The position numbers were made by a program, and so were the translations under genes. A stretch of DNA of 64,000 nucleotides, taken from NCBI GenBank assembly GCA_963722305.1, contig CAVRKE010000002.1:379878-443877 (forward strand), written 5' to 3'. Of this stretch, positions 1-52,472 are shown piece by piece. This stretch comes from Candidatus Levyibacteriota bacterium. Lineage in GTDB: Bacteria > Patescibacteriota > Microgenomatia > Levybacterales > UBA12049. The notes under the pieces are model-generated. The model saw only the letters and a list, made by a program, of their open reading frames with translations. It was not told the DNA's origin and ran no database searches. The first letter of the stretch is position 1. Each line of letters starts with the position of its first letter.

Positions 1-2
1 AT

Positions 3-3000
3 TTTACTAATGAACTCCCTTACGGACAGATTGTTGCCCCAACTGCCATTAACGATTATTTTGTTTTGGGAGGAAGCACGGTCGAAACCGGAACGCTGAC
101 TTTTAACCCGGCAGCCGCCAACTTAACAATTGGCACCAATAATACCGGCAGCGGTGGACAAAACGGTACTTTGACTTTATATTCTGCCGGCAATGCTGTG
201 ACCGATACTTATCTAACCACCAATAATAATGGCGATCTATTAATCCCTACTAATAACGTCGGCATTGGCGCCACTCCGACAGATTTAGACGCGGATAGTA
301 ATCCGTTTAAATTGGAAGTGGCCGGCAGCATTGGCCCCAACCAAAACGGAGTTTATGATTTGGGCTCGCCAACCATGCAATACAGAAATCTCTATTTGAC
401 TGGTCAGACAACCTCCGGCGGAAACATCACTATCGCCAACACCTCCCCATCAATCACGTTTACGGATACCACTCCTTTGGAAAATGAATATGAGATTAAT
501 GTCGACCATTCCCAATTTACGGTTACAAACAATACGACCGGAGCTAATGCTATCACTGTTAACGCCAACGGCAATATTGATCTTGCCGGTGGATCGCTTG
601 CTACAGGGTGCACTATCGATAACGCCACCGGCAATTTGAGTTGCTCAGGCTCCGGCACTTTCGGCAACGGCCTTACCGTTACCACCGGTGCGGTGAATGT
701 AACCGGCACTTCAGGGGCATTAAGTCTTTCCGGACTGGGGGCATCAAGTATTGCCTTAACCGGAGCAAATAACTTACTCATCACTGCCAACAATTTCAAC
801 GCGACTGCAACCGGAATTAACAATACCGCCATTGGCACTGACCTTCAGTCAAGCGGTGCATTTACTACTTTAAGTGCCAGTGGGACGGTAACCCTCTCCA
901 ATCTTCCGTTTAATGGTCCTGTTTACGCAACTGCCGGCGGAGTCTTAACTTCCGAACAATATCTCTCTCCCTCAAGAGGAGGAACCGGGCTTGATGCCTC
1001 AGCTGCTCCCAACGGTTCTTTATTGATTGGTAACGGTACCGGTTATACTCTGGCAACAATCTCCGGAAGCTTAAACCAGGTAAATGTGACCAATGGCGCC
1101 GGAACAATCACCCTTTCCCTCCCCCAGGATATTGCCCTAACCTCTACCCCGACTTTTACGGGAATGAATTTGACAAGTACCAATAACCAACTGGTATTGG
1201 GAAATACCAATGCCGCTAACCATACCTTAACAATTAACTCCCCTTCCCAAACCGCTAACGTCACCGCATTAATTCCTTCGCTGACCAATCCCGGCGGCGA
1301 TACTTTTGTGTTTGCGGAGCAGGCCCAAACTCTGGACAACAAAACCATCGGCTCAAGCGGGTTGGTTTTCTCCGGAGCAACTGCGGATATTAATACCCAG
1401 TCAGGTAAAGACTTAACTGTTTCTACCACCGGACTGGGAACGCAGATTGTTCTTTCTTCGGTAGTTAAACTTGGTACCATTGCTTCTGCCCCAAGTTATC
1501 CAAATACCGCTACCACCCTTTGTCGGGATGATACCAGCGGACAAATTTCCCAATGTCCGGCCAACGCCGCCAACGTTGATTTACAGCAGGCATATAATGC
1601 CGGAAACACTATCACCACCAACAACAATAACAATATTACCTTTAACCTGGCCGGTGGCGAGACAACTTCATTTGTTTTAAACAATTCCGGAACCGCTCCC
1701 GCATTTGTGATTAACGACATGAATGCCGGGTTAGGAACTGTACTGGAAGTTCAATCTGCCACTAATCCAACGTTAACTGTTTTGGAAAACGGTACACTTT
1801 CAACTGTTGGTAATTTAATTACTACCGGCACCGGCTCGATTACTTCCGCAAGCACCCTGACTGCCCAAGCCACCTCAAACCAGCTGGTCTTAGGCACAGG
1901 CAGCGCCACTACTACTTTTAACTCCGCCGCTGCCACCGCTCAAACGGTGAATATCCCCGAACTCTTAACTTCAGATAGTGATACCTTTGCCTTCGTTAAC
2001 GAAGCTCAGACTTTGCTGAACAAAACCATCGGCTCCTCGGGTTTGGTTTTCTCCGGAGCAACTGCGGATATTAATACCCAGTCAGGTAAAGACTTAACTG
2101 TTTCTACCACCGGACTGGGAACGCAGATTGTTCTTTCTTCGGTAGTTAAACTTGGTACCATTGCTTCTGCCCCAAGTTATCCAAATACCGCTACCACCCT
2201 TTGTCGGGATGATACCAGCGGACAAATTTCCCAATGTCCGGCCAACGCCGCCAACGTTGATTTACAGCAGGCATATAATGCCGGAAACACTATCACCACC
2301 AACAACAATAACAATATTGGTTTTACCTTAGCTAATGGTGAATCAACTCAGTTTACTTTAGCCAATGCCGGCAATGCCACTTCCGCTTTTGTCATCAGTG
2401 ATGCTAATGCTGCCCACAACGCTTTGCAAATTTTATCAGGAGCTACCCCGACTTTAACCCTTGGCATCAACGGCGATATCACCACTCCCGGCAATATCAC
2501 CACTAACAGTGGCGGAACTATTACTTCAGCCGGTTTACTAACTGGGTCAAACGGATTAACCGTCACCACCGGTGCAATTAATCTTACCGGCACCTCCGGG
2601 GCATTAAATTTATCCGGCTTGAGTGCATCAAGTATTGCCTTAACCGGAGCGAATAACTTACTCATCACTGCCAATAACTTTAATGTAACTGGAACCGGGA
2701 TTAACAATACAGCTATTGGAGCAACCACTCAATCAAGCGGAGCCTTTACTACTTTAAGTGCCAGTGGGACGGTAACCCTCTCCAATCTTCCGTTTAATGG
2801 TCCTGTCTACGCAACTGCCGGCGGAGTCTTAACTTCCGAACAATACCTGTCTACAACCAGAGGCGGTACCGGACTTGACACTTCCTTGGCCCAAAACGGT
2901 GAACTTTTGATTGGTAACGGTGCCGGTCTTTCCTTAGGATACATCGGGGGAACTTTAAACCAAATTAATGTTGCCAGCACTTCCGGGACAATCACCCTTT

Positions 3001-6000
3001 CCCTCCCCCAGGATATTGCTTTAACCTCTTCCCCGACATTTGCGGGAATGAATTTGACAAATACTGCCAATCAGTTAATGCTTGGTGGAAGTGGAGCTGT
3101 TACAACCATCAGCTCTACCTCTTCTGCAAATCAAACCATCACTATTCCAACACTACTTACTTCCAACATTGACAGTTTTGCTTTCCTCAATGAAGCCCAA
3201 ACTTTAACTAACAAAACCATCGGCTCGACCGGGTTGGTTTTCTCGGGGCCGGACACGAGTGCTGACATCACCACCGTTTCTGACCAAAATTTGACTTTAA
3301 CTCCAAACGGTAGTGGACAAATTGTGCTTGGCAGCGTTGTCCAACTTGCCGCCGATTTGCCATCCGCTCCAACCAGCGCCACTACTCTTTGCCGGGATGA
3401 TGCCGCTCCCCACCAAATCGTCCAGTGCCCCGCTAACGCTATGAATGTAACGCTGCAGGAAGCATATAATGCCGGAAACACTATCACCACCAACAACAAT
3501 AACAATATTGGTTTTACCTTAGCTAATGGTGAATCAACTCAGTTTACTTTAGCCAATGCCGGCAATGCCACTTCCGCTTTTGTCATCAGTGATGCTAATG
3601 CTGCCCACAACGCTTTGCAAATTTTATCAGGAGCTACCCCGACTTTAACCCTTGGCATCAACGGCGATATCACCACCACCGGAGCACTTTCTTCGGGGAA
3701 CATCACTTCTTCGGGAACAATTACTTCCCAAGCGGTTAACAACCAACTGGTCTTGGGCAATGGCAATACCACCACCATTAATGCTATTGCTTCTTCCTCA
3801 TCCTCTTGGACTGCCACTATTCCGGCGCTAACCGGCAACGACACTTTTGTCTTTACCAACCAGGAGCAAACTTTGACCAATAAATCCTTGGTTGACGGCT
3901 CAACTTATTTGGTTAACGAAAACTATCAAACCCGAAGAGTACAGTTTGATTTAAGCGAACTGCAAACAGATGGCGTAACCAGAGTCATTACCGTTCCGGA
4001 TATGAACGGTTCGCTTTGTTTAACCACCGGAAACTGCGCCGGCACCGGTGGTGTAGTTGGCGGAAGCGGAAATGTTAATCGGCTAGCTAAATTTACCGCC
4101 GACGGTTCCACTATTGGTAATTCCAATATTCTGGACGATGGTAGTTTGATAACCGCATTGTCTGGTCTCCAAATGGCAAAATTAGCCGATGCAACCGGTG
4201 GAACACCCTTGGAAAACTCCAATATCTTTACGCTTCAAGGTTCGTACTGGACCGGAGGTGCAGCCGCTAACGCTACTTTCGGCTTACAAAATATTGTTAT
4301 TAATAATTCTCCCCTGTCTTACAAATTATCTTTCCAAAATACTAACGGAACCGAAGTCGCCAGCCTTTCGCAAAACGGAGAGCTGACGCTTTCTTCCTTA
4401 ACCGCTAACGGTCCTGTTTATTCCAACAACGGAACCTTGAACAGTGAACAATATTTGTCTACAGTTAGGGGCGGCACCGGACTTGACACCTCGGAAGCAA
4501 CAAACGGTGAACTTTTGATTGGTAACGGTGCCGGTCTTTCCTTGGGATATTTAACGGGTACTCCCAACCAGATTAGCATCGCCAGTACGGCCGGTGCTAT
4601 CAATTTCTCTTTACCTCAGGACATTGCTCTTACATCTACTCCAACTTTTGCGGCTTTAAGTTTAACCAATTCCGTCAACCAATTGACCCTGGGTACAACC
4701 GGTGCAATCACCACTGTCAATTCCGCTGCCACAGGAAATCAAACAGTCACTATCCCCGCTCTCTTAACGTCTAACTCCGACACTTTTGTTTTTGCCAGCG
4801 AAGCCCAAACTTTACAGAATAAAACCATCGGCTCAAGCGGCTTGGTGTTTTCGGGTTTAGATGCAAACGCCGACATCACCACTGTTTCTAGTCAAAACCT
4901 AACTTTAACACCCAACGGTTCCGGACAAATCGTCCTTTCCAACATCACCCAGTTGGGAAATTTACCAAGCGCACCAATTAGCCCGATTAATCCTCCATCG
5001 ACCCTTTGCCGAAACAATGACAATGGCCAAATTGTCCAATGTTCTGCCAATTCTTTGAATGTTACCCTGCAGCAGGCTTATCAAGCGGGCAACACCATTA
5101 CTACTTCCAATCTGTATCATAATCTGGCATTTAATTTAACCGAAAACACGCAGTTTACTTTAAATAATGCCGGCAGTGCCACTTCCGCTTTTGTGATTAC
5201 CGATAGCAATCCTAACAATAATGCTTTGCAAATTTTATCGGGGACAACCCCAACTTTATCACTTGGTGTCAACGGCAATGTTTCTACCTCCGGCACAATG
5301 ATCTTTACCGGTACAGGCACCAACATTACCACTATCTCCAATCAAAACCTAACTTTAACACCCAACGGTTCCGGAGAAATTGTCCTTTCCAATACTACGC
5401 AGCTCGGTTCTTTACCGTCGGCTCCGATTAGCCCGACTATTCCACCCACCACCTTGTGCCGCAATAACGACAACAGTGAAGTTATCCAATGTCCTGCCAA
5501 TGCTTTGAATGTTACTTTGCAACAGGCTTACAACGCCGGTAATACCATTACTACCAACAGCAATAACAACATTGGTTTTGTTCTGTCTTCCGGCGAAACA
5601 ACTTCGTTTACCTTAGCTAATAACGGAGACTCCACCGGTTTTGCTTTAACTAACGCCGGGCTCGGGACTGCCATGATTATTAATGATACTAACGCAGCTA
5701 CCAACAACGCTTTGGTGGTTGAGTCGGGCGGTGCCCCAACTTTAACTATCAGTGAAAACGGCAGTCTTTCAACCGTTGGTGTACTTACCGCCGGAGCAAC
5801 TGCAAATCAACTGGTTTTAGGAAACGAAACTACGGGTAATCACACTACTACTATCAGCGCCACCCCTCCTACATCCGACATGACCGCCGTTATTCCTGCT
5901 CTAACCAGTGGCATCGGCAGTGATACTTTTGTTTTTGAAAACCAAACTCAAACTTTAACTAACAAAACCATCGGCTCAACCGGCTTGGCCTTTACCGGAC

Positions 6001-9000
6001 CGGACACTAACAATGACATTTATACCATCTCCAACCAAAATTTGAGTTTATCAGCCGGAACAGGACAAATTGTTTTAACCGCAAATGCCGTACAAGTTTC
6101 TGCTCTTTCAGCAGCTGTCGGAGGAACTGTGGTTTGTCAAAACTCCTCTAACCAATTGTCTGTTTGTTCATCGAATGCTTTAAATGTAACTTTGCAACAG
6201 GCTTATGAAGCCGGCAACACCATTACCACTACTGAGGATAGAGGGATTGCCTTTACCTTAGGAACAGGTCTTAACACTTCCTTTAATCTGACTAATAACG
6301 GTACTGCTTCGGCTGCTTTTAATTTAGCTAATAACGGTACAGGAAGTGGCATCTACCTAACTAACGCCAGTACCGGTAATGGGGTTATCATTAACGATAC
6401 TAACTCCCCTACCAATATCGCCCTACAAGTCCAAAGCAATACTACTCCGACACTAACTATTAATGCTAATGGGAATTTAACAACTAGTGGAAATGTTTCT
6501 TCATCCGGAAATATCCTTACTACCGGCACAGGCACAATTACTTCAGCGGGGCTCCTGACTGCTTCTAATGGATTGACACTGACAACCGGAGCGGTGAATA
6601 TTACCGGAACATCAGGAGCACTAGCTCTATCAGGACTTTCGGCCTCAAGTATCGCTTTATCTGCGGGGAATAACTTAACGATTACTGCCGATAACTTTAA
6701 TACCACCTCAACCGGTATTAACTCTACTGCAATTGGTGCAACCACTGCCTCAAGTGGTGCCTTTACCACACTCTCATCCACCGGCAATACTACTTTATCA
6801 TCCACTGCTTTGTCTACCTTTACAGCCGGAAACACCAGCGGACTAACCACCATTAACGGTTCTTTTGTGAATATTAATGCCAATGGTCAAGGCAGTACTT
6901 TATCCTTAGGCCTGGCTGACAATACCCCAAGCGCTTTTGTGCTAACCAATGGCGCAACCGATTACATCAATGTCAACACCAGTAGTATTTCCCCGGCTAT
7001 CTCTTTTGGAGCGGTTAATACTAACTTTAACGGCAATGTTTCGATGCTTGGAACATTGGGTGTTACCGGAGAAACTACTCTTTCTGCAAACCTGGGGGTT
7101 AGTGGCAGTGCTACTGTGGGTGGAACATTAGCAGTAACTGGTAATACTTCCCTTTCGACTGTTAATACCTCTGCCTTGGCCACTCTAAACAGTGCTTCCG
7201 TTACCAATAACGAAACTGTTGGGGGAATCTTAGCTGTTAATGGGAATTTTACTGTTGGTAACAACCAATTTACTGTCGAAGCCTTAACCGGTAATACTTC
7301 TATTGCCGGAACTCTGGGAGTAACCGGTGCCACTACCCTTTCTTCAACTTTAGATGTTTTGGGACTTTCTACCTTTAATGGCGGGGCACTAATTCCAACC
7401 GGACAAGCCTTTAATGCCTCAGGGTCTGCCACCTTCACACCGGGGACTAATAACAGTGTCAGTATTAATACCGATTACTCCAATGGTTCTTACCTGACCA
7501 TCAACGGTATCGGTACTGCAGTTGGTAATGCCATTTGTTTGGATTCCTCAAACAGAGTAGTTAGTTGTAACGGTGCACCTTTTGGACTGCAGGCAGCCTA
7601 CAATACCGGCAACACCATTACCACTACTGAGGATAGAGGGATTGCCTTTACCTTAGGAACAGGTCTTAACACTTCCTTTAATCTGACTAATAACGGTACT
7701 GCTTCGGCTGCTTTTAATTTAGCTAATAACGGTACAGGAAGTGGCATCTACCTAACTAACGCCAGTACCGGTAATGGGGTTATCATTAACGATACTAACT
7801 CCCCTACCAATATCGCCCTACAAGTCCAAAGCAATACTACTCCGACACTAACTATTAATGCTAATGGGAATTTAACAACTAGTGGAAATGTTTCTTCATC
7901 CGGAAATATCCTTACTACCGGCACAGGCACAATTACTTCAGCGGGGCTCCTGACTGCTTCTAATGGATTGACACTGACAACCGGAGCGGTGAATATTACC
8001 GGAACATCAGGAGCACTAGCTCTATCAGGACTTTCGGCCTCAAGTATCGCTTTATCTGCGGGGAATAACTTAACGATTACTGCCGATAACTTTAATACCA
8101 CCTCAACCGGTATTAACTCTACTGCAATTGGTGCAACCACTGCCTCAAGTGGTGCCTTTACCACACTCTCATCCACCGGCAATACTACTTTATCATCCAC
8201 TGCTTTGTCTACCTTTACAGCCGGAAACACCAGCGGACTAACCACCATTAACGGTTCTTTTGTGAATATTAATGCCAATGGTCAAGGCAGTACTTTATCC
8301 TTAGGCCTGGCTGACAATACCCCAAGCGCTTTTGTGCTAACCAATGGCGCAACCGATTACATCAATGTCAACACCAGTAGTATTTCCCCGGCTATCTCTT
8401 TTGGAGCGGTTAATACTAACTTTAACGGCAATGTTTCGATGCTTGGAACATTGGGTGTTACCGGAGAAACTACTCTTTCTGCAAACCTGGGGGTTAGTGG
8501 CAGTGCTACTGTGGGTGGAACATTAGCAGTAACTGGTAATACTTCCCTTTCGACTGTTAATACCTCTGCCTTGGCCACTCTAAACAGTGCTTCCGTTACC
8601 AATAACGAAACTGTTGGGGGAATCTTAGCTGTTAATGGGAATTTTACTGTTGGTAACAACCAATTTACTGTCGAAGCCTTAACCGGTAATACTTCTATTG
8701 CCGGAACTCTGGGAGTAACCGGTGCCACTACCCTTTCTTCAACTTTAGATGTTTTGGGACTTTCTACCTTTAATGGCGGGGCACTAATTCCAACCGGACA
8801 AGCCTTTAATGCCTCAGGGTCTGCCACCTTCACACCGGGGACTAATAACAGTGTCAGTATTAATACCGATTACTCCAATGGTTCTTACCTGACCATCAAC
8901 GGTATCGGTACTGCAGTTGGTAATGCCATTTGTTTGGATTCCTCAAACAGAGTAGTTAGTTGTAACGGTGCACCTTTTGGACTGCAGGCAGCCTACAATA

Positions 9001-12000
9001 CCGGCAACACCATTACCACTACTGAGGATAGAGGGATTGCCTTTACCTTAGGAACAGGTCTTAACACTTCCTTTAATCTGACTAATAACGGTACTGCTTC
9101 GGCTGCTTTTAATTTAGCTAATAACGGTACAGGAAGTGGCATCTACCTAACTAACGCCAGTACCGGTAATGGGGTTATCATTAACGATACTAACTCCCCT
9201 ACCAATATCGCCCTACAAGTCCAAAGCAATACTACTCCGACACTAACTATTAATGCTAATGGGAATTTAACAACTAGTGGAAATGTTTCTTCATCCGGAA
9301 ATATCCTTACTACCGGCACAGGCACAATTACTTCAGCGGGGCTCCTGACTGCTTCTAATGGATTGACACTGACAACCGGAGCGGTGAATATTACCGGAAC
9401 ATCAGGAGCACTAGCTCTATCAGGACTTTCGGCCTCAAGTATCGCTTTATCTGCGGGGAATAACTTAACGATTACTGCCGATAACTTTAATACCACCTCA
9501 ACCGGTATTAACTCTACTGCAATTGGTGCAACCACTGCCTCAAGTGGTGCCTTTACCACACTCTCATCCACCGGCAATACTACTTTATCATCCACTGCTT
9601 TGTCTACCTTTACAGCCGGAAACACCAGCGGACTAACCACCATTAACGGTTCTTTTGTGAATATTAATGCCAATGGTCAAGGCAGTACTTTATCCTTAGG
9701 CCTGGCTGACAATACCCCAAGCGCTTTTGTGCTAACCAATGGCGCAACCGATTACATCAATGTCAACACCAGTAGTATTTCCCCGGCTATCTCTTTTGGA
9801 GCGGTTAATACTAACTTTAACGGCAATGTTTCGATGCTTGGAACATTGGGTGTTACCGGAGAAACTACTCTTTCTGCAAACCTGGGGGTTAGTGGCAGTG
9901 CTACTGTGGGTGGAACATTAGCAGTAACTGGTAATACTTCCCTTTCGACTGTTAATACCTCTGCCTTGGCCACTCTAAACAGTGCTTCCGTTACCAATAA
10001 CGAAACTGTTGGGGGAATCTTAGCTGTTAATGGGAATTTTACTGTTGGTAACAACCAATTTACTGTCGAAGCCTTAACCGGTAATACTTCTATTGCCGGA
10101 ACTCTGGGAGTAACCGGTGCCACTACCCTTTCTTCAACTTTAGATGTTTTGGGACTTTCTACCTTTAATGGCGGGGCACTAATTCCAACCGGACAAGCCT
10201 TTAATGCCTCAGGGTCTGCCACCTTCACACCGGGGACTAATAACAGTGTCAGTATTAATACCGATTACTCCAATGGTTCTTACCTGACCATCAACGGTAT
10301 CGGTACTGCAGTTGGTAATGCCATTTGTTTGGATTCCTCAAACAGAGTAGTTAGTTGTAACGGTGCACCTTTTGGACTGCAGGCAGCCTACAATACCGGC
10401 AACACCATTACCACTACTGAGGATAGAGGGATTGCCTTTACCTTAGGAACAGGTCTTAACACTTCCTTTAATCTGACTAATAACGGTACTGCTTCGGCTG
10501 CTTTTAATTTAGCTAATAACGGTACAGGAAGTGGCATCTACCTAACTAACGCCAGTACCGGTAATGGGGTTATCATTAACGATACTAACTCCCCTACCAA
10601 TATCGCCCTACAAGTCCAAAGCAATACTACTCCGACACTAACTATTAATGCTAATGGGAATTTAACAACTAGTGGAAATGTTTCTTCATCCGGAAATATC
10701 CTTACTACCGGCACAGGCACAATTACTTCAGCGGGGCTCCTGACTGCTTCTAATGGATTGACACTGACAACCGGAGCGGTGAATATTACCGGAACATCAG
10801 GAGCACTAGCTCTATCAGGACTTTCGGCCTCAAGTATCGCTTTATCTGCGGGGAATAACTTAACGATTACTGCCGATAACTTTAATACCACCTCAACCGG
10901 TATTAACTCTACTGCAATTGGTGCAACCACTGCCTCAAGTGGTGCCTTTACCACACTCTCATCCACCGGCAATACTACTTTATCATCCACTGCTTTGTCT
11001 ACCTTTACAGCCGGAAACACCAGCGGACTAACCACCATTAACGGTTCTTTTGTGAATATTAATGCCAATGGAACCGGCAATGGTTTGTCATTAGGTATTG
11101 TCGGTAATACTACCAATGCTTTCAATTTGGCAGAAGGAACCAATAATTATCTAAATGTTAATACTACCAGTGGCGCAGAAAATGTTGCTTTCGGTAACGG
11201 CAATACCAACCCTTCCTTCTCCTTTTTGGGCAACGGTAATTTTAATACCGGAACCGGCAGCGCTTACTTAAACGGTAATACCTTTGTTACCGACAGTAAT
11301 ACCTTTAATGTTGGTACCGGCGCGACTTCCTTAGGTGGAACATTAGCGGTTAGCGGTATCACTACCTTAAACTCGAATTTGCAATTATTACCGTATGGCA
11401 CCGGTACCGGTCAAACCAGTGAATTACAACTTTACGATTTGGCAGCTAACGGAAGTTATAATATTTCCTTAAAAGCTCCGGATCAACTAACTTCTAATAC
11501 ATCCTATACCCTTCCTTCTGATGATCAAGCTGCCGCTAACTATGTCTTGACTTATCAAGACCAGGGAATTTTGAAATGGGTAAACGTCAATTTGATTGGC
11601 GGAGATATTACCGCAGTTGGCAATGTACTCCAAGGGGATGCCTTTACCGGCAATGACCTTGGTAACACTTTATGGTTTAACGGACCGGGGGCTTCCGTTA
11701 ACCAATTCACGACCGCGCTGACCGGCTCTTTGGTATCTCAACCGGAAACAATTACTTTACCTGCCAACAGCGGAACAGTGGCGCTTATCCAACCGCGCAT
11801 TGCCCAAACTGCCACAGGCTCTAGTCCTTTAATTTTCTTAAATGATACAGGCACCGCCAATCTGGTACAACTACAAAATAATACCGCCGACGTGTTTGTG
11901 GTAGATAAAGATGGCAACGTCGCAATCAACGGCGGCAATATCACTACCACCCAAAACAGTGCGTCACTATTTAACTCCAATGCCACCCAAATCTCAATCG

Positions 12001-15000
12001 CTGGCGCAGGAACTACAATTTCAGTTGGTGCATCTACCGGAACCACCACCATTAACAATAAACTGGCAGTTACCGGAAACCTGGAAGCCAACGGAATATT
12101 AAATGCCAACAATACTTTTAATGCTTATGGAGTCGCTAACATCGGAGACGGCGGAGACACTATCACTCTAAATGGTTCTAATCTAACCATGACCGCCACC
12201 GGCACGTTCGTTACCAATCTTGCCGATAATACCGACAGCGTCTTCGTGATTAAACAAGGCTCAAATCAATATTTGAATGTTACCACGACCACCGGTGCAC
12301 AGAATATTGCCTTTGGTAATACTACCACCAATCCGACTTATACATTTAACGGTTCCGGCTTAACAACTTTTGGAGGCAATATTGCTGTAAACGGCGGGTC
12401 GCTTATTTCCAGTTCGTCTGCGGCAAGCATTTTCAACACTAATGTTAACAACCTTAATATCGGCGGCGCCGCCTCGGTTATTTCAATCGGCGCACCCGGC
12501 AGCGGAATCACAACTATTAATGACAACGCTGCCGTCAGCGGCAATTTGGCGGTAAACGGACCTCTATCTGCCGACATCACCTCAACTACCAACACCGCGA
12601 CTGTGTTTAATTCCGGTGTCACAAACTTATCAATTGGTAATGCTGCCAGTACTCTTTCACTTGGGGCAACCGGAGGCACAACCACTGTAAACAGTAAATT
12701 AAATGTAACCGGAAACTTGACTGCTAACGCGGAATTTGTTGCAAACGGACAAATTACTCTGCAACCTTCGGGGACAAACGGAATCAATATTATTACCGAC
12801 GCCGATTCTTTGTTAAACATCGGCGGACTATCAATTCCGGAAACATCGGCTTATTCTCTTTGTCTTGATTCTTCCAACAATGTTGTAAAGTGTCCTCCGT
12901 CTGCATCCACTTTGCAATCCGCTTATAACGGCGGCAACAGTATTTTGACCGGTAATGCCAGAGATATTGTTTTTAATCTGGCCGATACTTCTACCGATTC
13001 TAACTTTATTGTCAACACTTTATCCGGCTCAACCGGAGCAACGGAATTCGTAAGAAACAACGGAATAGGCACTGCAAGTCCAACCCAGTTGGTTTTAATT
13101 GACAATGCGGATACAACTCATATTTTACCCATTGGCTTAAAAATTGGCTCTTCCGGAACAAGCGGTGTTACTACGGCAATCGATGTTTCCGATCCATCGA
13201 TTGTTACCGCTCTTTCTTTTGGTTCAAATGATATTTCCGGTAATTACTTTACAGTTGAGGGCTCCAGCGGAAACGTTACTACCAACGGAACTTTGGCAGT
13301 CAACAGCGGCAGCATTACCACCACCTCAACCGGCACTACCGCTATTTTCAACACTAACACCACCAATCTTAGCATCGGCGGTGCGGCGACAACTTTAACC
13401 TTAGGTGCAACCACCGGCACTGCTACTATTAGAAATGGCAGCATTGAATTGCCAAACGCTACAGCTTTAGATGCCGGCAACGCTTTATTGACCATTGACT
13501 CGGCGTCAATCGGCGGAGGTTACGGCAACACCGGAGTAACGATATCTAATAGCGGCAATATCCAGGCCAACGGCACTTTGACGGTTGATAATACTTCTGT
13601 TTTAACCGGAGATGTTACCATGGGAGGAAATCTGGCGGTTAACGGAGGGAATATTACTACCATTACTTCAACAGGGAATATCTTTAATTCCCCAACCACT
13701 CTTAACATTGGACAAGCAGCAACTACGGTTTCTCTTGGCGCAACTTCCGGAACAACGACCATCAATAACAACTTAAATGTTTCTGGAAATTTAACTACTG
13801 TTGGAGCTGTCAGCTTTACGCCTGGAACAAATGGACAAAATATTACCTTTAATACCAGCGGAAACAACAGGCAACTTGTTATCTCGGGTCTTCCAACTCA
13901 AACCGGCACCTTGGTTTGTATTAACGGTACCAATGGTCAAATCACCCAATGTGCATCCGATGCCATCTCCCTGCAGTCTGCCTATGTGGGAGGAAATACC
14001 ATTACCACTACCAATAACAGGGACATTTCCTTTACACTGGCGAATACTTCAACCAACTCAAACTTTGTGGTGACAACGGCTGCTGATTCAACCGGTTATT
14101 CGGTCTTCCAAAGAGCAACCGGTTCAACTACTTATGCTCCCGATCAATTAATCTTAGTTAATAATGCCGACACTTCTATGCCGGTAACAACCGGTATAAA
14201 GTTGACCGGATTATTCGGAACCGGCATTGATGTTTCCAATAGCGGCATCACTACCGGTTTAGCTCTTGGTTCAAGTGCCATTTCCGGCAATAACTTCTCT
14301 GTTAGTTCTGGTGGTAATATTACCGCCAGCGGAAATCTATCCCTTAACGGTTCAACCATTACTACTACCAATAATACTTCTGCCGCATCGGTGTTTAATA
14401 CCAATGCTCCAACTTTGAATATGGGAGGAGCGGCAACTACTATTAGCATTGGGGCAACCAGCGGGACAGCCACTATTAATAACGCCACCCTTTCCCTACC
14501 CCATGCCACCGCTATTAATGCAGCCAATGCCGCTTTAAGTGTTACTTCTGCCAGTATTGGTGGAGGTTATGGGAACACCGGAGTGACAATTTCCAATAGC
14601 GGCAATATCCAGGCCAACGGCACTTTAACGGTTGACAGCACTTCTGTTTTAACCGGAGATGTCACCATGGGAGGAAATCTGGCGGTTAACGGCGGATATA
14701 TCACCACCACCTCAACCAGTCCTTCCTACATCTTCAATACCAATACTCCGGAACTGCATATCGGAGAAGGAGCATCAACCCTTAGTCTGGGGGCAACCAC
14801 TGGAACAACCACTGTTAATAACACCTTAACTGTAGAGAATGATTTAAATGCTTATGGTAATGTCATCTTTACCCCGGCAACCAGCGGACAAAATATTTCC
14901 TTCAATACCAACGGGAGTAATTCCAAACTTTACATCACCGGACTGCCTACCGCCACCGGCACCTTGGTTTGTATTAACGGTACCAATGGTCAAATCACCC

Positions 15001-18000
15001 AATGTGCATCCGATGCCATCTCCCTGCAGTCTGCCTATGTGGGAGGAAATACCATTACCACTACCAATAACAGGGACATTTCCTTTACACTGGCGAATAC
15101 TTCAACCAACTCAAACTTTGTGGTGACAACGGCTGCTGATTCAACCGGTTATTCGGTCTTCCAAAGAGCAACCGGTTCAACTACTTATGCTCCCGATCAA
15201 TTAATCTTAGTTAATAATGCCGACACTTCTATGCCGGTAACAACCGGTATAAAGTTGACCGGATTATTCGGAACCGGCATTGATGTTTCCAATAGCGGCA
15301 TCACTACCGGTTTAGCTCTTGGTTCAAGTGCCATTTCCGGCAATAACTTCTCTGTTAGTTCTGGTGGTAATATTACCGCCAGCGGAAATCTATCCCTTAA
15401 CGGTTCAACCATTACTACTACCAATAATACTTCTGCCGCATCGGTGTTTAATACCAATGCTCCAACTTTGAATATGGGAGGAGCGGCAACTACTATTAGC
15501 ATTGGGGCAACCAGCGGGACAGCCACTATTAATAACGCCACCCTTTCCCTACCCCATGCCACCGCTATTAATGCAGCCAATGCCGCTTTAAGTGTTACTT
15601 CTGCCAGTATTGGTGGAGGTTATGGGAACACCGGAGTGACAATTTCCAATAGCGGCAATATCCAGGCCAACGGCACTTTAACGGTTGACAGCACTTCTGT
15701 TTTAACCGGAGATGTCACCATGGGAGGAAATCTGGCGGTTAACGGCGGATATATCACCACCACCTCAACCAGTCCTTCCTACATCTTCAATACCAATACT
15801 CCGGAACTGCATATCGGAGAAGGAGCATCAACCCTTAGTCTGGGGGCAACCACTGGAACAACCACTGTTAATAACACCTTAACTGTAGAGAATGATTTAA
15901 ATGCTTATGGTAATGTCATCTTTACCCCGGCAACCAGCGGACAAAATATTTCCTTCAATACCAACGGGAGTAATTCCAAACTTTACATCACCGGACTGCC
16001 TACCGCCACCGGCACCTTGGTTTGTATTAACGGTACCAATGGTCAAATCACCCAATGTGCATCCGATGCCATCTCCCTGCAGTCTGCCTATGTGGGAGGA
16101 AATACCATTACCACTACCAATAACAGGGACATTTCCTTTACACTGGCGAATACTTCAACCAACTCAAACTTTGTGGTGACAACGGCCGATAACTCCACCG
16201 GATACTCCGCTTTTGTTAGGGCCAATGGATCAGGTGTTGCCGATCCAATGCAGTTAATTTTGGTTGCTAACCAAAGCACAACCAGAAGTATCGCGGCCGG
16301 TATTAAAATCCAATCGGCTGCCGGTAAAATAACCAACGGACTTGACCTTTCCGATCCTAATATTGTTAACGCTCTCTCCTTAGGTTCAAGTAATGTTACT
16401 GCCAATAACTTTAACATTGAAGGTGCAACCGGAAATATTACAACTTCGGGAACTTTGGCTGTTAACGGAGGGAGTATTACCACTACTTACACCAATACCG
16501 CCAACATCTTTAATACTAACGCCAGCGGATTGAATATTGGTGGAGCGGCAACCACCATTAGTCTTGGTGCAACATCGGGAACTACGACAATTAATAATCA
16601 AACTCTTGCTCTGCCTAACGCTACTGTTGTCAGTGCCGGAAACGCCACTTTAAGCGTTGACACTACTAATATTGGCGGCGGATATGGACAAACCGGAGTG
16701 ACGATATCGAACACAGGAAATATTCAGGCCAACGGAACCTTAACTGTTGATAATAGTTCTTTGTTGGCCGGAGACGTTACCACCAACGGCACCATTAACG
16801 CCAACGGCGGAACTATTGCTACCACTTATACCAATACTGCCAATATCTTTAATACTAACGCCAGCGGATTGAATATTGGTGGAGCGGCAACCACCATTAG
16901 TCTTGGTGCAACATCGGGAACTACGACGATTAATAATGACCTTGAAGTTAAAGGCTCAGCCACAATTGATACTAATCTAACCGCTTTAGGACAGTCTACA
17001 TTTACTCCATCCGGCTCAAACGGAGTAACGATTAATACCAATAATAACGCTTTGTTGAAAGTTAGCGGACTAAGTAGTGCATTAGGAAGCGTCATTTGCG
17101 TTGACTCTTCAAATAATATTAGGACCTGCTCCAATGCGGCTTTGTCATTACAAGCCGCTTATAATGCCGGCAACACCATCACTACCACTAATGCCAGAGA
17201 TATCGGTTTCACTTTGGCAGATACGGCCTCCGATTCAAACTTTGTGGTTACAACAGCAGCCGGTTCAACCGGAGGAACAGAGTTTATCAGAGCCGATGGT
17301 TTGGCAGCGGCAGACCCAAATCAATTGGTCTTAATTGATAATGCCAGTACTAGTAGACAATTACCAACCGCATTAAAGATTACCTCAAGCGGAGGAACAG
17401 GCATCGGAACAGCGCTGGATGTTTCTGATGCTTCTATTGTTACAGCCATTGCTTTAGGGACAAATGATATAAGCGGTACCAATTTCTCTGTCAATGGCAC
17501 TAATGGCAATATTACCAGTAGCGGAAATCTAACTCTTAACGGTTCGACTATTACTACTACCTCAACCGGAACTGCTTCCGTATTTAACAGTAATGCCTTA
17601 ACCTTTAATATGGGAGGAGCAGCCACCAATGTTAATATCGGGGCTACTTCCGGTACAGCAACTATTAATAATGCCACCCTTTCTCTACCCCATGCTACCG
17701 CTATTAATGCCGGCAATGCCTTATTAACGATTGATTCAACTAACATCGGCGGAGGTTACGGCAACACCGGAGTGACCATTTCTAATGCCGGCAATATCCA
17801 AGCCAACGGCACTTTAACGGTGGATAATACATCCTTGTTAACCGGGGATGTCACCATGGGAGGAAATTTGGCGGTTAACGGAGGATATATTACCACCACC
17901 TCTACCAGTCCCTCTTACATCTTTAATGCCAATACTCCGGAACTGCATATCGGAGAAGGGGCATCAACCATTAGTCTGGGAGCCACATCCGGAACTACGA

Positions 18001-21000
18001 CTATTAATAATAGTCTGACGGTAAGTGGCGTTGCTACCTTTAATGGCGGAGCAACAGTGGCAACCAACCAAAGTTTTGCTGCTAACGGACCATCTACCTT
18101 TACCCCCGGAAGTAGTAACAATATTATCTTTAACACCGGCAGTAGCTCTTTCTTTGTCTTGAATAATTTAACTTCCCCATCAACTGCCGGAACAGCGATT
18201 TGTTTGGACTCTTCAAATAATGTCACCAAATGCGGCGGCGCAACCTTCTCACTCCAAGCTGCTTATGTTGGAGGAAATACCATTACTACTACCAATAACC
18301 GAAATATCTCTTTCACTTTGGCAGACACCGCCATCGATTCAAACTTTGTTATCACCACTGCCGCAAACTCTACCGGAGAAACCCAATTCTTAAGGGCCGA
18401 CGGAACAGCCAATAACAATCCCAACGAGTTGGTTCTAATCCAAAATCTAAATACCCAAACAGCTCTACCGGTTGGCTTAAAAATTGCCGGCGTCAGCGGT
18501 GGAAACGTTACTACTGCTCTTGATCTTTCCGATGCCAACATTACCACCGCCATTGACTTGGGAGCAAACAACATTGCCGCCACCCACTTTAACCTAAATG
18601 GCTCTAACGGTAATATTACAACCAGTGGAACTCTGGCAGTTAATAGCGGCAGTATTACTTCTACTGCCGGAACAGCAGCAATCTTTAATAGCGGAGTGTC
18701 AAATCTTTCGATTGGCCAAGCAGCCAGTACCTTAAGTTTGGGTGCAACATCCGGGACTACGACTATTAATAATGTGACTCTTTCTCTGCCTAATGCTACT
18801 GCCGTTAATGCTTCCAATGCCACCGGTAACTTCTACTCTTTAACCACCGGTGGCGGTTATAGCTCAACCGGAGCAACAATTGACAACAATGGCAATATTC
18901 AAACCAAAGGTTCATTAACGGTTGATAGCTCTTCCACCTTAACCGGGAATGTTACCACTGCCGGCACTCTGGCAGTTAATAGCGGCAGTATCACTTCTAC
19001 TGCCGGGACGGCATCGATATTTAATAGTGGGGTGTCAAATCTTTCGATTGGCCAAGCTGCCAGTACTTTAAGTTTGGGTGCAACATCCGGAACTACGACT
19101 ATTAATAATAACCTGGCGGTAAGTGGCGTTGCTACTTTTAACGGCGGGGCAACGGTTGCAACCAACCAAAGTTTTGCCGCTAACGGACCGTCTACCTTTA
19201 CTCCTGGAAACAGTAACAATTTAACAATTAATACAACCGGAAATTCTTTTGTTAACATTACCGGACTGCAAACCGCTACCGGAACTTTGGTTTGTCTTGA
19301 TTCTTCCAATAACGTTGTAATGTGCTCAACTACTTCTATTTCTTTACAAGGAGCATATACCGGCGGCAACACCATCACTACCACTAATGCCAGAGATATC
19401 GGTTTCACTTTGGCAGATACGGCCTCCGATTCAAACTTTGTGGTTACAACAGCAGCCGGTTCAACCGGAGGAACAGAGTTTATCAGAGCCGATGGTTTGG
19501 CAGCGGCAGACCCAAATCAATTGGTCTTAATTGATAATGCCAGTACTAGTAGACAATTACCAACCGCATTAAAGATTACCTCAAGCGGAGGAACAGGCAT
19601 CGGAACAGCGCTGGATGTTTCTGATGCTTCTATTGTTACAGCCATTGCTTTAGGGACAAATGATATAAGCGGTACCAATTTCTCTGTCAATGGCACTAAT
19701 GGCAATATTACCAGTAGCGGAAATCTAACTCTTAACGGTTCGACTATTACTACTACCTCAACCGGAACTGCTTCCGTATTTAACAGTAATGCCTTAACCT
19801 TTAATATGGGAGGAGCAGCCACCAATGTTAATATCGGGGCTACTTCCGGTACAGCAACTATTAATAATGCCACCCTTTCTCTACCCCATGCTACCGCTAT
19901 TAATGCCGGCAATGCCTTATTAACGATTGATTCAACTAACATCGGCGGAGGTTACGGCAACACCGGAGTGACCATTTCTAATGCCGGCAATATCCAAGCC
20001 AACGGCACTTTAACGGTGGATGAAAATTCTCTTCTTTCTGGAAATGCCAGTGTTAGTGGAACCTTAGCCGTCAACGATGTAACCTACCTTAATTCAGCGC
20101 TAAACGTCACCGGAGTGGCAACATTTGGCAATGATGTCCAGGTTAACAACGGTAATCTGACAACTACTACTGCCGGAACCGCCAATGTCTTCAACACCAA
20201 TGCTACCGGATTAAATATTGGCGGAGCTGCTACAGCTGTGAATATCGGGGCAACCAGTGGTACTACTACTATTAATAGTGGCACCCTTTCTTTGCCTAAT
20301 GCCACTGCGGTTACTGCCGGCAGTGCTTTGCTAACTATTGACTCTGCTTCGATTGGTGGAGGGTATGGTAATACCGGGGTAACAATTTCCAATACCGGCA
20401 ATATCCAAGCCAACGGCACTCTAACCATTGGTAGCACTTCCGACCTTAAAGGACAAGTTACCGCCGAAGCCGGTATCAAAGTTAACGGTACAGGTTCTAC
20501 TGCGGATATCACTACCGATAAATCAACTGCTACTCTATTTAATACCACTGCTACCACCGTTAATCTGGGTGGGGCTGCCACAGCTGTGAATATCGGGGCA
20601 ACCAGTGGTACTACTACTATTAATAACAACCTGGCGGTAAGTCTGGTTGATAATAGTGCTAATGCCTTCAGTGTCTATGAAGGAGCCAATAGCTATCTTA
20701 ATGTCAGCACTGTGGATAGCAGTGAGAATGTCGCTTTTGGTAATGGTAGTACCAATCCTACCTACTCCTTCCTGGGTAGTGGAGCGACTACCTTTACCGG
20801 AGATATTAATGCCAACAGTGGAACTATTGCGACTAATAAAACTGCTGCCAGTCTATTTAACTCCACTGTTACCAATCTTGGCCTAGGAGGCGCTGCTACC
20901 ACTTTAACAATGGGCGCAACCAGTGGCACTGCTACTATTAGAAATGCAATCATTTCTCTACCTAATGCTACACAAGTTAATGCTGCCAATGCCAGCGGTA

Positions 21001-22643: not shown

Positions 22644-23995
22644 TGTTACTCAGTGTTCTTCCAATACGGTTACCTTACAAACTGCTTATGCGGGTGGTAA
22701 TACCATTACTACCACCACCGGCAGAAACATTGACTTTACTCTGGGCAGTGGACTGGCTACTTCCTTTAACTTGACTAATCAAGGAACTGCCACAGGCTTT
22801 AATCTTAACAATACCTCAAGCGGTAATGCTTTAGCTGTTACCTCGGGAGGAATTAATGCTTTAACTATTGATAATAACGGGAACTCAACCAGCAGCGGTA
22901 ACTTTACTACTTCCGGAAATATCGCTACCGCTAATAGCGGTACTATTACCTCCAATGGGTTATTGACAGCTTCAAACGGTTTAACGGTTACTACCGGCAA
23001 TGTGAATATAACGGGAACAGCAGGAGCAATCAGTCTCTCCAGCCTTAATGCCTCCAGTATTGCTTTAAGTGGTACTAATAATCTAACGATTACTGCCAAT
23101 AACTTCAATGTCTCGGCGAACTGGGATTAATAATACCGCTATTGGTGCAGGTAGTACTCAATCAACTGGTGCCTTTACCACTTTATCCTCAAATAACAAT
23201 ACCACCTTGGCATCAGGGGCGGGAGCAACTCTCACTTTGGGTAATACCACCGGGACGGTTACTCTTAACGGTTCTACTGTTAGTATTAATAGTAATGGAG
23301 CCGGTAACGCTTTATCCTTAGGTATTGCCGGTAATACTGCTTCTGCTTTCAATGTCTCCCAAGGGAGTAATAAATACATTAATGTTAATACCAGTACCGG
23401 GACAGAGAATGTCGCTTTTGGTAATACTAGTACCAATCCTTCCTATTCCTTCTTAGGAACAGGACAAACTACCTTTGGCGGAAATGTTTCTGTTTCGGGA
23501 ACCTTAGGAGTTACCGGGAATACTTCCCTCTCTACCGTTAATACCTCAGGTCTGGCAACTCTTGATAGTTTACTGACTGAAAACTTTGCCACAGTTTCCG
23601 GAACACTAACCGTTAATGATCTCACCCAACTTAACTCTACCTTAGGAGTTAGTGGGAATACCTCCTTAGGAGGAACCCTGGGAGTTACCGGCAATGTTTC
23701 GGTTAATACCAATAAATTCACCATTGATGCTTCAACCGGGAATACGGTCATCGGTGGAACATTAACCGTTACCGGGAATACCTCCCTTTCCACTCTTAAT
23801 ACTTCGGGACTGGCAACCCTAAACAGTGCCTCTGTTACTAATAATGAGACAGTGGGAGGAGCATTAACAGTGACCGGTGTTTCTACCTTTAACGGCGGAG
23901 CAACCGTTGCTTCAGGACAAAACTTCCTGGCCCAGGGTCAATCAACCTTTACACCCTCTGCCAGTAGTGGTATTACCGTTAATACTACCAATGGC
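22644..23995 (+). pseudogene. Frameshifted junction segment: degenerate copy of the 1422-bp repeat unit linking the two giant ORFs. ORF-track ORFs 22771..23130 and 23108..24010 are its out-of-frame pieces.
   Basis: Aligned to the downstream copy (24114-25432) there are single-base insertions near 22622 (ccctattgtc vs ccctttgtc), 23117 (tctcggcgaactggg vs tctcgggaaccggg) and 23994 (accaatggccaatacc vs accaatgccaatacc). The Cys-loop at 24040-24100 is also decayed (second Cys lost). Confidence 0.6.
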
Positions 23996-25432
23996 CAATA
24001 CCTTCTTTAGATTGAATGGACTAAGTACAGCAATCCTGGTACCCATTTGTTTGGATTCATCCAATAATGTTATTGTCCTGTACCAATCTACCGTTAGTTT
24101 ACAGACTGCTTATCATGGTGGTAATACCATTACTACCACCACCGGCAGAAACATTGACTTTACTCTGGGCAGTGGACTGGCTACTTCCTTTAACTTGACT
24201 AATCAAGGAACTGCCACAGGCTTTAATCTTAACAATACCTCAAGCGGTAATGCTTTAGCTGTTACCTCGGGAGGAATTAATGCTTTAACTATTGATAATA
24301 ACGGGAACTCAACCAGCAGCGGTAACTTTACTACTTCCGGAAATATCGCTACCGCTAATAGCGGTACTATTACCTCCAATGGGTTATTGACAGCTTCAAA
24401 CGGTTTAACGGTTACTACCGGCAATGTGAATATAACGGGAACAGCAGGAGCAATCAGTCTCTCCAGCCTTAATGCCTCCAGTATTGCTTTAAGTGGTACT
24501 AATAATCTAACGATTACTGCCAATAACTTCAATGTCTCGGGAACCGGGATTAATAATACGGCTATTGGTGCAGGTAGTACTCAATCAACTGGTGCCTTTA
24601 CCACTTTATCCTCAAATAACAATACCACCTTGGCATCAGGGGCGGGAGCAACTCTCACTTTGGGTAATACCACCGGGACGGTTACTCTTAACGGTTCTAC
24701 TGTTAGTATTAATAGTAATGGAGCCGGTAACGCTTTATCCTTAGGTATTGCCGGTAATACTGCTTCTGCTTTCAATGTCTCCCAAGGGAGTAATAAATAC
24801 ATTAATGTTAATACCAGTACCGGGACAGAGAATGTCGCTTTTGGTAATACTAGTACCAATCCTTCCTATTCCTTCTTAGGAACAGGACAAACTACCTTTG
24901 GCGGAAATGTTTCTGTTTCGGGGACCTTAGGAGTTACCGGGAATACTTCCCTCTCTACCGTTAATACCTCAGGTCTGGCAACTCTTGATAGTTTACTGAC
25001 TGAAAACTTTGCCACAGTTTCCGGAACACTAACCGTTAATGATCTCACCCAACTTAACTCTACCTTAGGAGTTAGTGGGAATACCTCCTTAGGAGGAACC
25101 CTGGGAGTTACCGGCAATGTTTCGGTTAATACCAATAAATTCACCATTGATGCTTCAACCGGGAATACGGTCATCGGTGGAACATTAACCGTTACCGGGA
25201 ATACCTCCCTTTCCACTCTTAATACTTCGGGACTGGCAACCCTAAACAGTGCCTCTGTTACTAATAATGAGACAGTGGGAGGAGCATTAACAGTGACCGG
25301 TGTTTCTACCTTTAACGGCGGAGCAACCGTTGCTTCAGGACAAAACTTCCTGGCCCAGGGTCAATCAACCTTTACACCCTCTGCCAGTAGTGGTATTACC
25401 GTTAATACTACCAATGCCAATACCTTCTTTAG
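22690..25432 (+). repeat. Two tandem copies of a 1422-bp (474-aa) unit. Copy 1 (22690-24010) carries 3 single-base insertions; copy 2 (24114-25432) is in frame.
   Basis: Antisense ORF pairs 22779/24203 (offset 1424), 23158/24581 and 23443/24866 (offset 1423) are identical. These offsets fit a clean 1422-bp unit plus the insertions remaining downstream in copy 1. Confidence 0.85.
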
Positions 25433-45002: not shown

Positions 45003-45033
45003 GCTGAAAACCGTTTTAAGATAAGCTTGGGTA

Positions 45034-45063
45034 TTGTAATCTAATTCGTCCAACTGATATTAT
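45034..45063 (+). promoter_or_regulatory. Possible sigma70-like promoter for ppsA: TTGTAA, 18-nt spacer, TATTAT. No Shine-Dalgarno before the ATG.
   Basis: Motif spacing read from the sequence 16-45 nt upstream of the ATG at 45079. Confidence 0.3.
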
Positions 45064-45078
45064 AAATATACCTGCCCT

Positions 45079-47538: not shown

Positions 47539-47568
47539 TTTAAGTAGTATAATAATCTAAGACCAAAT

Positions 47569-49209: not shown

Positions 49210-49224
49210 GTCCCCTGTTTTGTT

Positions 49225-51537: not shown

Positions 51538-51566
51538 AAAACAGATAATTCCCTACCGGATTTAAA

Positions 51567-51595
51567 GATATAAACATTAAAACAAAATTTCACAA
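51567..51595 (-). promoter_or_regulatory. Possible sigma70-like promoter for the Wzy_C/TPR gene (minus strand): TTGTGA, 17-nt spacer, TATATC. Divergent from the IS1595-fragment promoter.
   Basis: Read from the reverse complement of 51567-51595. ATG lies at 51537. Confidence 0.35.
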
Positions 51596-51627
51596 GACAG
51601 TCAATAAGCAATTTAGGTATTTATCCC

Positions 51628-51656
51628 TTGACAACACGTAATTTGCTTTAATATAC
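51628..51656 (+). promoter_or_regulatory. Canonical sigma70-like promoter (TTGACA, 15-17 nt, TAATAT/TATACT) immediately upstream of the IS1595 transposase fragment
   Basis: ttgacaacacgtaatttgctttaatatact lies 8-36 nt upstream of the ATG at 51664. Confidence 0.5.
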
Positions 51657-51663
51657 TTAATTT

Positions 51664-52128
51664 ATGAGCAATGAATTTTCTCTGGCTCATTTTGCCTCAC
51701 GTTTCCCAAATAATGACACCTGTCTTGAAGAAATTAGGCGATGGCGTTTCCCCGGAGGAATATATTGTAGCAACTGTCGGAAAACAACCAGACATTATAA
51801 ACTAACCGCTAGACCTGTCTATACCTGTAAATTTTGTCGCAGTCAAACTTCACCATTAGCGGATACCATTTTTGAAAAAACGACTACTCCTTTGAGACTT
51901 TGGTTTTATGCACTATTTCTAATGACACATACCAGAGCAAATATTTCTGTAAAAACGCTACAACGTGAGCTTGGTGTTACCTATAAAACCGCTTGGAGAA
52001 TGTATAATAATATTTTATCTTTGATGGAACAGAATAACGGTGATTTATTATCGGATGCACAGGTCCGCAAGTGGGTTTTCTTTAACAAGATCGAATTAAA
52101 AGTTGTCCAGAAAAAACAGGAATTATAA
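51664..52128 (+). pseudogene. IS1595-family (ISXO2-like) transposase, N-terminal zinc-ribbon/HTH fragment only. The DDE domain is missing.
   Basis: 154 aa. CSNCRK...YTCKFCRSQTSPLADTIFEKTTTPLRLWFYALFLMTHTRANISVKTLQRELGVTYKTAWRMYNNI matches the IS1595 N-terminal transposase zinc-ribbon domain. Full-length proteins are over 300 aa. Confidence 0.65.
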
Positions 52129-52426
52129 CTTTAAGGATGGACTGCGCGTTTTAACAGCTCAAAAAAATCATCTCTGGCATTTTTTCTTCCACCGTCTTTT
52201 AAGACTTCCTTAATTCTTGCGTCTTTTATCCTTAAACGTTTTTTTTGCATATGAACCTTTAATTTTTCTTTCCCCGGCTAATTATAAAAGCTGTTTTGTA
52301 AAAATCTCAGCAAAGTTTTTCCGGCAAATGAATTTTGGCAAGAGAATAACTGCCTTACCACCATTAATCTAACTATCAATCTAACTATACTACTTAGCGT
52401 GCGTTTTTTCAGCTATTATCTTTGGG

Positions 52427-52455: not shown

Positions 52456-52472
52456 CTCAAGGGTTTTAATAA

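Follow-up and report, generated by a model that had tools for sequence, protein, structure and literature searches.

How does a coding unit of 1,395 bp come to stand about three and a half times in a row within one gene, with not a single nucleotide changed between its copies? The question was raised by a DNA stretch of 64,000 nucleotides from a Candidatus Levyibacteriota bacterium, which belongs to the Candidate Phyla Radiation (CPR; assembly GCA_963722305.1, contig CAVRKE010000002.1, positions 379,878 to 443,877 of the forward strand). The whole stretch is called the window here, and all coordinates are window positions. The repeats lie within a giant open reading frame (ORF). The tract at 6211-11071 is probably a genuine, very young, in-frame coding macrosatellite, in which one 465-residue fibre module was amplified to 3.48 copies.

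The array of 1,395-bp units

The array was delimited by self-comparison of the window at fixed offsets. At an offset of 1,395 bp, identity was unbroken from 6211 to 9676, a run of 3,466 bp with 0 mismatches. Exact runs of 2,071 bp and 676 bp were obtained at offsets of 2,790 and 4,185, respectively. The periodic tract covers 6211-11071, that is 4,861 bp or 3.48 copies of the unit, with no mismatch. Self-BLAST and a separate repeat search of the window recovered the same array. It was overlooked by Tandem Repeats Finder, which was run with a longest period of 500; the direct offset comparison was used in its place. The copies are:

6211..7605, plus strand: unit copy 1 (exact identity at offset 1,395; in frame and stop-free)
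7606..9000, plus strand: unit copy 2, 100% identical to copy 1 (self-comparison, self-BLAST; tblastn 100% over residues 1-465)
9001..10395, plus strand: unit copy 3, 100% identical to copy 1 (self-comparison, self-BLAST, tblastn)
10396..11071, plus strand: partial copy 4, 100% identical to the unit's first 676 bp (offset-4,185 run, boundary alignment)

Chance is ruled out as the origin of an exact match of 3.5 kb. Translation showed that the unit comprises 465 codons and is stop-free in the frame of the surrounding giant ORF. Each copy contains one complete Cys-loop motif (described below), with a motif spacing of 1,395 bp, and represents one module. An origin of the repeat from a mobile element or phage insertion was rejected because the unit is a regular in-frame module of the gene and has the Cys-loop motif.

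Both edges of the array are abrupt. In boundary alignments, a nucleotide identity of 100% gives way to about 40-55% over a few bases, and the sequence beyond partial copy 4 is a distantly homologous module at this low identity. The closest full-length paralogous module in the gene has only about 50% protein identity to the unit (tblastn). It follows that the copies are not long-standing neighbours in slow divergence. No difference was seen among the 3,466 sites compared, which puts the 95% upper bound on the divergence of the copies at about 0.09% (Poisson estimate). Judged by this divergence, those repeats of the same gene that have diverged by 1% would be at least ten times as old as the array.

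The original prediction, made from the sequence without database searches, had described about 3.5 perfect tandem copies without nucleotide differences and had taken them as a sign of very recent expansion or ongoing gene conversion. These statements agree with the 3.48 in-frame copies, with the absence of mismatches and with the contrast between 0/3,466 differences in the array and 1-7% in the other repeat families of the gene. Its array span of 6211-11063 had the correct start, whereas the end was 8 bp short of 11071. It also listed two sets of identical antisense and out-of-frame ORFs. The set at 6353/7748/9143 (176 amino acids) was found as described; the set placed at 6949/8344/9739 was 13 bp off and is located at 6962/8357/9752 (158 amino acids). 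The antisense ORFs are identical because they lie inside the repeat. They were rejected as genes. Biased codon content yields them as a compositional by-product: in one antisense frame, the giant gene has 24 open stretches of at least 150 amino acids.

The giant gene and its reading frame

The frame that holds the array extends over the left 45 kb of the window and is broken in one segment:

1..22643, plus strand: first part of the giant frame, holding the array; modular, rich in Thr, Gly, Asn, Ser and Ala; open from the left edge of the window
22620..23995, plus strand: frame-broken segment with single-base insertions at about 22622 (T), 23117 (C) and 23993 (G) (three-frame translation, paralogue alignment)
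23877..45002, plus strand: second part of the giant frame, 7,041 amino acids, of the same frame and module family as the first (ORF, three-frame translation, motif)

Codons of the first part start at position 3 and no stop lies upstream; the 5' end of the gene is outside the window. The three insertions were called relative to paralogous copies, in an alignment of 22251-24297 with 23681-25719. Just before the stop at 22643, the expected module motif carries on in another frame. The second ORF is in the frame of the first because the three insertions add up to a net shift of +3. The insertions are restricted to a repeat-rich 1.4 kb; neither the remainder of the 45-kb gene nor any of the housekeeping genes is disrupted. 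Residual long-read errors are their probable cause; the pattern fits indels that remain where short reads cannot be placed. If the three frameshifts are sequencing errors, the locus would be one gene of more than 45 kb, coding for about 15,000 amino acids. If they are real, it would be two giant genes. About 43.6 kb of the 45 kb is open in a single frame.

The composition of the giant protein is strongly biased. Threonine (17%), glycine (13%), asparagine (12%), serine (11%) and alanine (10%) together make up about 64% of the residues, and charged residues account for 5.6%. About 30 modules, 150-845 residues in length, make up the chain, and every one of them ends in the Cys-loop motif C(L/V)DSSNxVxxC...LQxAYxxGNTITT. 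Pfam and NCBIfam scans of the giant protein found no family above threshold. The guanine-plus-cytosine (GC) content is 44-48% in the giant gene and 36-41% in the flanking genes (45000-64000). This drop probably reflects the amino acid bias of the giant protein rather than a foreign origin.

Other repeats in the giant gene

The 1,395-bp array is accompanied by further in-frame repeats in the same gene. Two are sister arrays with little or no divergence, and three are older repeats detected by self-BLAST:

13902..16186, plus strand: 1,053-bp (351-codon) sister array, 2.17 perfect in-frame copies (1,232-bp exact run at offset 1,053)
25083..27773, plus strand: 777-bp (259-codon) sister array, 3.46 copies, identical except for one single-nucleotide polymorphism (SNP)
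22251-25719: period of 1,430 bp, about 2 copies, 97% identity
13509-16186: period of 1,047 bp, about 2 copies, 93% identity
34137-36778: period of 1,074 bp, about 2 copies, 93% identity

The sole SNP of the 777-bp array is located in copy 2 at 26363 and is synonymous (ACC to ACT). The copy that follows this array (27414-28196) is about 94% identical. The perfect 1,053-bp array sits within the older 93% repeat beginning at 13509. Arrays of graded age thus coexist in one gene, which shows that intragenic duplication has recurred. Ranked by sequence divergence, the 1,395-bp array appears to be the youngest of these repeats. Duplication was not confined to neighbours. A segment of 1.2 kb at the end of the first ORF (21549-22739) is 96% identical to 29484-30667, located 8 kb downstream in the second ORF, and this match points to long-range as well as tandem intragenic duplication.

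Identical patches occur within less similar repeats. A 483-bp patch of 100% identity is common to 25104-25586, 25881-26362, 26658-27140 and 30186-30668, and a 201-bp patch of 100% identity is common to 23660-23860, 25083-25283 and 28197-28397; the surrounding repeats are 91-98% identical. This mosaic of patches suggests that gene conversion may also be at work in the giant gene. Among the older paralogous modules, the ratio of nonsynonymous to synonymous changes (pN/pS) is 0.26-0.46, and the duplicated modules were therefore retained under purifying selection.

The encoded protein

Sequence searches showed homologues of the unit to be rare, and nearly all of them were partial. Among 1.84 billion representative proteins, 627 matched at E<=1e-3 and 17 at E<=1e-30. 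Just one spans nearly the whole unit, with 39% identity. The partial homologues include proteins with a YadA anchor, a Peptidase_S74 domain or collagen domains. A weak match, covering 69 residues at E 4e-7, was obtained to the phage structural-protein family phrog_697. Pfam, NCBIfam and PDB-sequence searches of the unit yielded nothing meaningful. Its matches to Mtd_N, POTRA, LiaF, bactofilin, laminin-G and EndoU were below cutoff and were discarded as low-complexity noise.

The end of the protein is more informative:

43440..44999, plus strand: conserved C-terminal region, ending in ...FNWWIVN and common to many proteins of Patescibacteria (homology, fold model)

The AlphaFold model of this region (predicted local distance difference test, pLDDT, 80) comprises a beta domain, an 80-residue helix and a terminal beta-sandwich. 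Its best PDB match was the pre-mature form of phi29 gp12, a tail appendage (E 1.3e-5). Later fold matches were phage head-fibre and decoration proteins, the Pam1, K64-1 and Sf6 tailspikes, K1 lyase and the R2 pyocin fibre; all these matches are local and have low template-modelling (TM) scores. The last 70 residues reached 25.3 bits with the Pfam family K1-lyase_C, below the cutoff of 27. The tailspike-like domain predicted here could be the functional tip of the protein. Pfam scans of the second ORF and the C-terminus found no anchor domain, no PF03895 and no Peptidase_S74.

Positions 40341-40806 gave weak sub-threshold matches to the lectin-like families 3keto-disac_hyd and Laminin_G in an otherwise domain-free protein. 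By these sequence matches, this segment could be a carbohydrate-binding domain.

The giant protein is most likely a very long, phage-fibre-like extracellular filament and is probably trimeric. This reading is based on the composition, on the partial homologues with fibre-type domains and on the C-terminus, which resembles a phage tail appendage. Two other types of giant surface protein were considered and rejected. A trimeric autotransporter of the YadA family would carry a PF03895 anchor, which was not found in the second ORF or the C-terminus; just some distant partial homologues of the unit have one. Giant adhesins of the MpIBP, LapA and SiiE type also have identical repeats, and they feature Ig-like or cadherin domains and a C-terminus of the RTX or type-1-secretion kind. 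Pfam and NCBIfam scans detected no Big, cadherin or RTX families here.

Origin of the array

The proposed sequence of events starts with a recent tandem amplification of one 465-residue module. Once two identical copies are present, unequal homologous recombination or replication slippage would add or remove whole 1,395-bp units in frame. The length of the fibre would then shift in steps of 465 residues. The 0.48 copy at the end may stem from a pre-existing 676-bp duplicate, from a conversion tract that reached into the next module or from a later in-frame deletion. By analogy with known repetitive surface proteins, it is plausible, as the original prediction had expected, that the copy number varies in the population and that the array sets the length of the stalk.

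Identity between copies can also be maintained rather than inherited from a recent event. Under concerted evolution, old neighbouring modules would have been kept identical by ongoing gene conversion, with no recent amplification. The patches of 100% identity inside 91-98% repeats elsewhere in the gene are the mosaic expected from conversion, and a conversion tract ending within the next module would account for the 0.48 copy. However, the array and its edges have neither a mosaic nor a gradient: identity is 100% throughout and then about 40-55%. The flanking modules, with a protein identity of about 50% or less, are too diverged to make good conversion partners. A full homogenisation of 4.9 kb that leaves no surviving difference is also less parsimonious than a recent duplication. 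The abrupt edges and the distance of the nearest paralogous module favour recent tandem amplification over slow homogenisation. Concerted evolution as the sole cause is unlikely; the two processes are not mutually exclusive.

The array could also have been produced falsely by assembly or consensus building, with a true unit number other than 3.48 or with slight differences between the copies. Perfect tandem repeats of kilobase size are well known to cause mis-assembly, and cmbA is a case in point (PMC13339910). The non-integer copy number is unusual. Three single-base indels are present in another repeat-rich stretch of the same contig, and passages of a preprint on giant genes report such indels for long-read assemblies (bioRxiv 10.1101/2023.11.21.568195). 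Against this stands the quality of the contig elsewhere. Many repeats with identities of 93-99.9%, and dozens at 88-99.8%, were resolved, and the single SNP in one 777-bp copy survives, which a homogenising polish would have erased. The 19 kb of housekeeping genes (45-64 kb) is intact, which indicates a low general error rate. Short-read assemblers collapse perfect repeats and do not write out 3.48 copies. Since short reads could not yield such an array, spanning long reads were probably used, and these easily span a tract of 4.9 kb. The original prediction had cautioned that short-read assemblers miscount structures of this kind; the caution was fair and is somewhat weakened by the resolved repeats and by the SNP kept in the 777-bp array, which speak against a wholesale collapse or homogenisation. 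We consider an artefact quite unlikely.

That the array is the product of neutral instability in a decaying, non-functional pseudogene, drifting with no effect on a fibre, is very improbable: three frameshifts within 1.4 kb (22622, 23117, 23993) do break the frame and the related contigs JBBCBH010005357.1 and Ga0562387_03598 are also split into many ORFs, but the repeat that holds the frameshifts is a place where leftover long-read errors would be expected, Ga0562387_03598 is simply error-prone (its phosphoenolpyruvate (PEP) synthase gene is broken as well), almost all of the 45 kb is open in one frame, the pN/pS between paralogous modules is low, the C-terminal region is 80% identical in a relative, and every amplification is in frame, with 1,395, 1,053 and 777 all being multiples of 3.

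A recent in-frame amplification of a fibre module remains the preferred explanation, and several observations count against it. Copy number and perfection of the array are based on a single assembly. The 0.48 copy with its abrupt ends calls for an extra event beyond simple unit-wise amplification. With three frameshifts 11.5 kb downstream of the array, the gene may be split or partly defective. The AlphaFold monomer of the unit was poor (pLDDT 61), extended and almost devoid of secondary structure, and a Foldseek search with this model found no PDB match. The input alignment consisted of 67 paralogues and homologues, and the model was not used for fold claims; as an extended, low-confidence prediction it would fit, but does not demonstrate, one chain of an intertwined fibre. 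The window does not reach the N-terminus, and neither an anchor nor a signal sequence was seen. Surface location, a rod-like shape of the unit, copy-number variation at the present day and any role in host attachment are inferences.

Genomic neighbourhood and relatives

Downstream of the giant gene, an intact gene set codes for PEP synthase, an aminotransferase, an archaeal-type PEP carboxylase, a GT4 glycosyltransferase and a Wzy_C/TPR protein. Two transposase genes are present as well. Positions in the window are:

45079-47538: PEP synthase
53623-55131: archaeal-type PEP carboxylase (PEPcase_2)
59154-60101: IS110-family transposase gene
61485-62195: truncated transposase (helix-turn-helix and first half of the rve integrase core), with no continuation in other frames

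The locus is chromosomal, as indicated by the housekeeping genes, a tRNA-Asn and the IS110 transposase alongside. The transposase genes are remnants of mobile elements near the giant gene. PEP synthase and PEPcase_2 genes lie close together in this CPR genome. Relatives of the PEP synthase are spread across CPR bacteria and DPANN archaea; the best matches were from metagenome-assembled genomes (MAGs) of CPR/Patescibacteria, namely Candidatus Levyibacteriota (77%) and Doudnabacteria (73%). An exact-protein look-up of the PEP synthase gave no match.

Homologues of the C-terminal 520 residues are mostly from Patescibacteria, including Levybacteria, Woesebacteria, Roizmanbacteria and Saccharimonadales. 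The closest one has 80% identity and is located on the JGI contig Ga0562387_03598 (3300056807). The gene order is as in the window: the end of a giant gene is followed by PEP synthase and the next ORF. This contig is full of frameshifts, its PEP synthase gene is in pieces too, and it covers just the 3' end of the giant gene. A related giant gene in GCA_037975565.1 (JBBCBH010005357.1) is likewise split into many short ORFs. Both appear to be error-prone long-read contigs that hide giant genes. Synteny through the PEP synthase led to one contig alone, DAIDHL010000006.1 of a Levyibacteriota MAG, in which a homologous giant ORF (1-3822) is truncated by the end of the contig and likewise terminates in ...FNWWIVN. 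The protein in the window lacks a Gly-rich low-complexity stretch found in this ORF.

The unit itself had no close counterpart in the collections searched. An exact search with a 43-mer of the unit found it absent from the genome and metagenome contig collections. A protein-based scan of metagenome contigs returned no close relative, and tblastn against phage genomes had no match.

Comparison with known repetitive proteins

Highly identical DNA repeats are known from the genes of surface proteins summarised as Periscope proteins, for example SasG/Aap, Rib, Sgo_0707, Esp and CdrA (PMC8201768). Their repeats were proposed to gain or lose units by intragenic recombination, which alters the projection of the protein (Whelan et al. 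2021, PMC8201768). The array has the same defining feature, long in-frame tandem repeats that are identical in DNA (3.48 copies, 0 mismatches). It differs in the unit, which is a composite, low-complexity sequence of 465 residues outside any Pfam family, in the CPR host and in proportion, as the array makes up only about 10% of a protein otherwise built of diverged modules. Other features of Periscope proteins, namely a repeat number that varies between strains, folded repeat domains that build an elongated rod and a signal or anchor with a distal functional domain at the cell surface, are putative for the giant protein.

The cmbA gene of Limosilactobacillus reuteri has identical repeats of about 290 bp, with 11 copies in one strain and 8 in another (PMC13339910). 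Both loci have identical tandem direct repeats inside a gene; cmbA is the longest gene of its genome, and its repeats were resolved by long reads alone. The unit is about 290 bp in cmbA and 1,395 bp here.

Giant genes of Omnitrophota and others are treated in passages of a preprint, which state that the repeats break short-read assemblies and that long-read indels split the genes (bioRxiv 10.1101/2023.11.21.568195). The same survey proposes, in these passages, a role of giant proteins in cell contact (West-Roberts et al. 2023, bioRxiv 10.1101/2023.11.21.568195). As in the genes described there, a gene of tens of kilobases is present in an uncultured and probably cell-associated bacterium. Unlike Omnitrophota-type giant proteins of the Archaeovorin or dockerin type, the protein in the window had no HEAT, TPR, dockerin or thrombospondin domains, enzyme domains or transmembrane domains in Pfam searches across the 45 kb. 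Its sequence is monotonous and fibre-like, and its host belongs to the CPR. The survey passage on giant proteins outside Omnitrophota lists Actinobacteriota, a Chlorobi episymbiont and Clostridia; CPR bacteria are not mentioned in that passage (bioRxiv 10.1101/2023.11.21.568195).

The predicted C-terminal fold matches phage fibres and tailspikes (phi29 gp12, K1 lyase, R2 pyocin fibre). In contrast to these, the locus is chromosomal, no Peptidase_S74 chaperone domain was found and the protein is an order of magnitude longer.

Within the CPR, Vampirococcus lugosii encodes giant surface proteins of 1,392-4,163 amino acids with WD40, TPR or PKD domains, and a role in host recognition and attachment was suggested for them (PMC8080830). 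Common to both cases are the CPR bacterium and a large gene for a probable fibrous surface protein. The protein in the window differs in its length of about 15,000 amino acids, its absence of known domains and its perfect kilobase repeats.

Implications

The perfect array is a known kind of recent repeat expansion, as expected in giant repetitive genes of surface proteins. It stands apart from the known cases by its very long composite unit of 465 amino acids, by a module family that has no annotation and by its host in the CPR. The giant gene likely accounts for several percent of a small genome as is typical of CPR bacteria. Its size is noteworthy by itself, far above that of the CPR surface proteins of 1,392-4,163 amino acids (PMC8080830).

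The more certain point is a practical one: genes of this kind are broken or miscounted in short-read MAGs. The relatives on DAIDHL010000006.1, JBBCBH010005357.1 and Ga0562387_03598 are all truncated or fragmented, and giant fibre genes of CPR bacteria are therefore systematically under-reported.

A wider picture can be drawn tentatively and is open to doubt. The locus might be a single CPR gene of more than 45 kb for a phage-fibre-like filament of an unannotated module family, whose length would be actively tuned, in the manner of Periscope proteins, by at least three perfect or near-perfect in-frame macrosatellites of kilobase scale (1,395 bp x 3.48, 777 bp x 3.46 and 1,053 bp x 2.17) in steps of 259-465 residues, as part of the host-attachment apparatus of an episymbiont. 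Attachment to host cells is central to the CPR lifestyle, and the surface fibres of these bacteria are almost uncharted. If the copy number truly varies, the array would extend the principle of the Periscope proteins to the Candidate Phyla Radiation, with an unusually large step of 465 residues.

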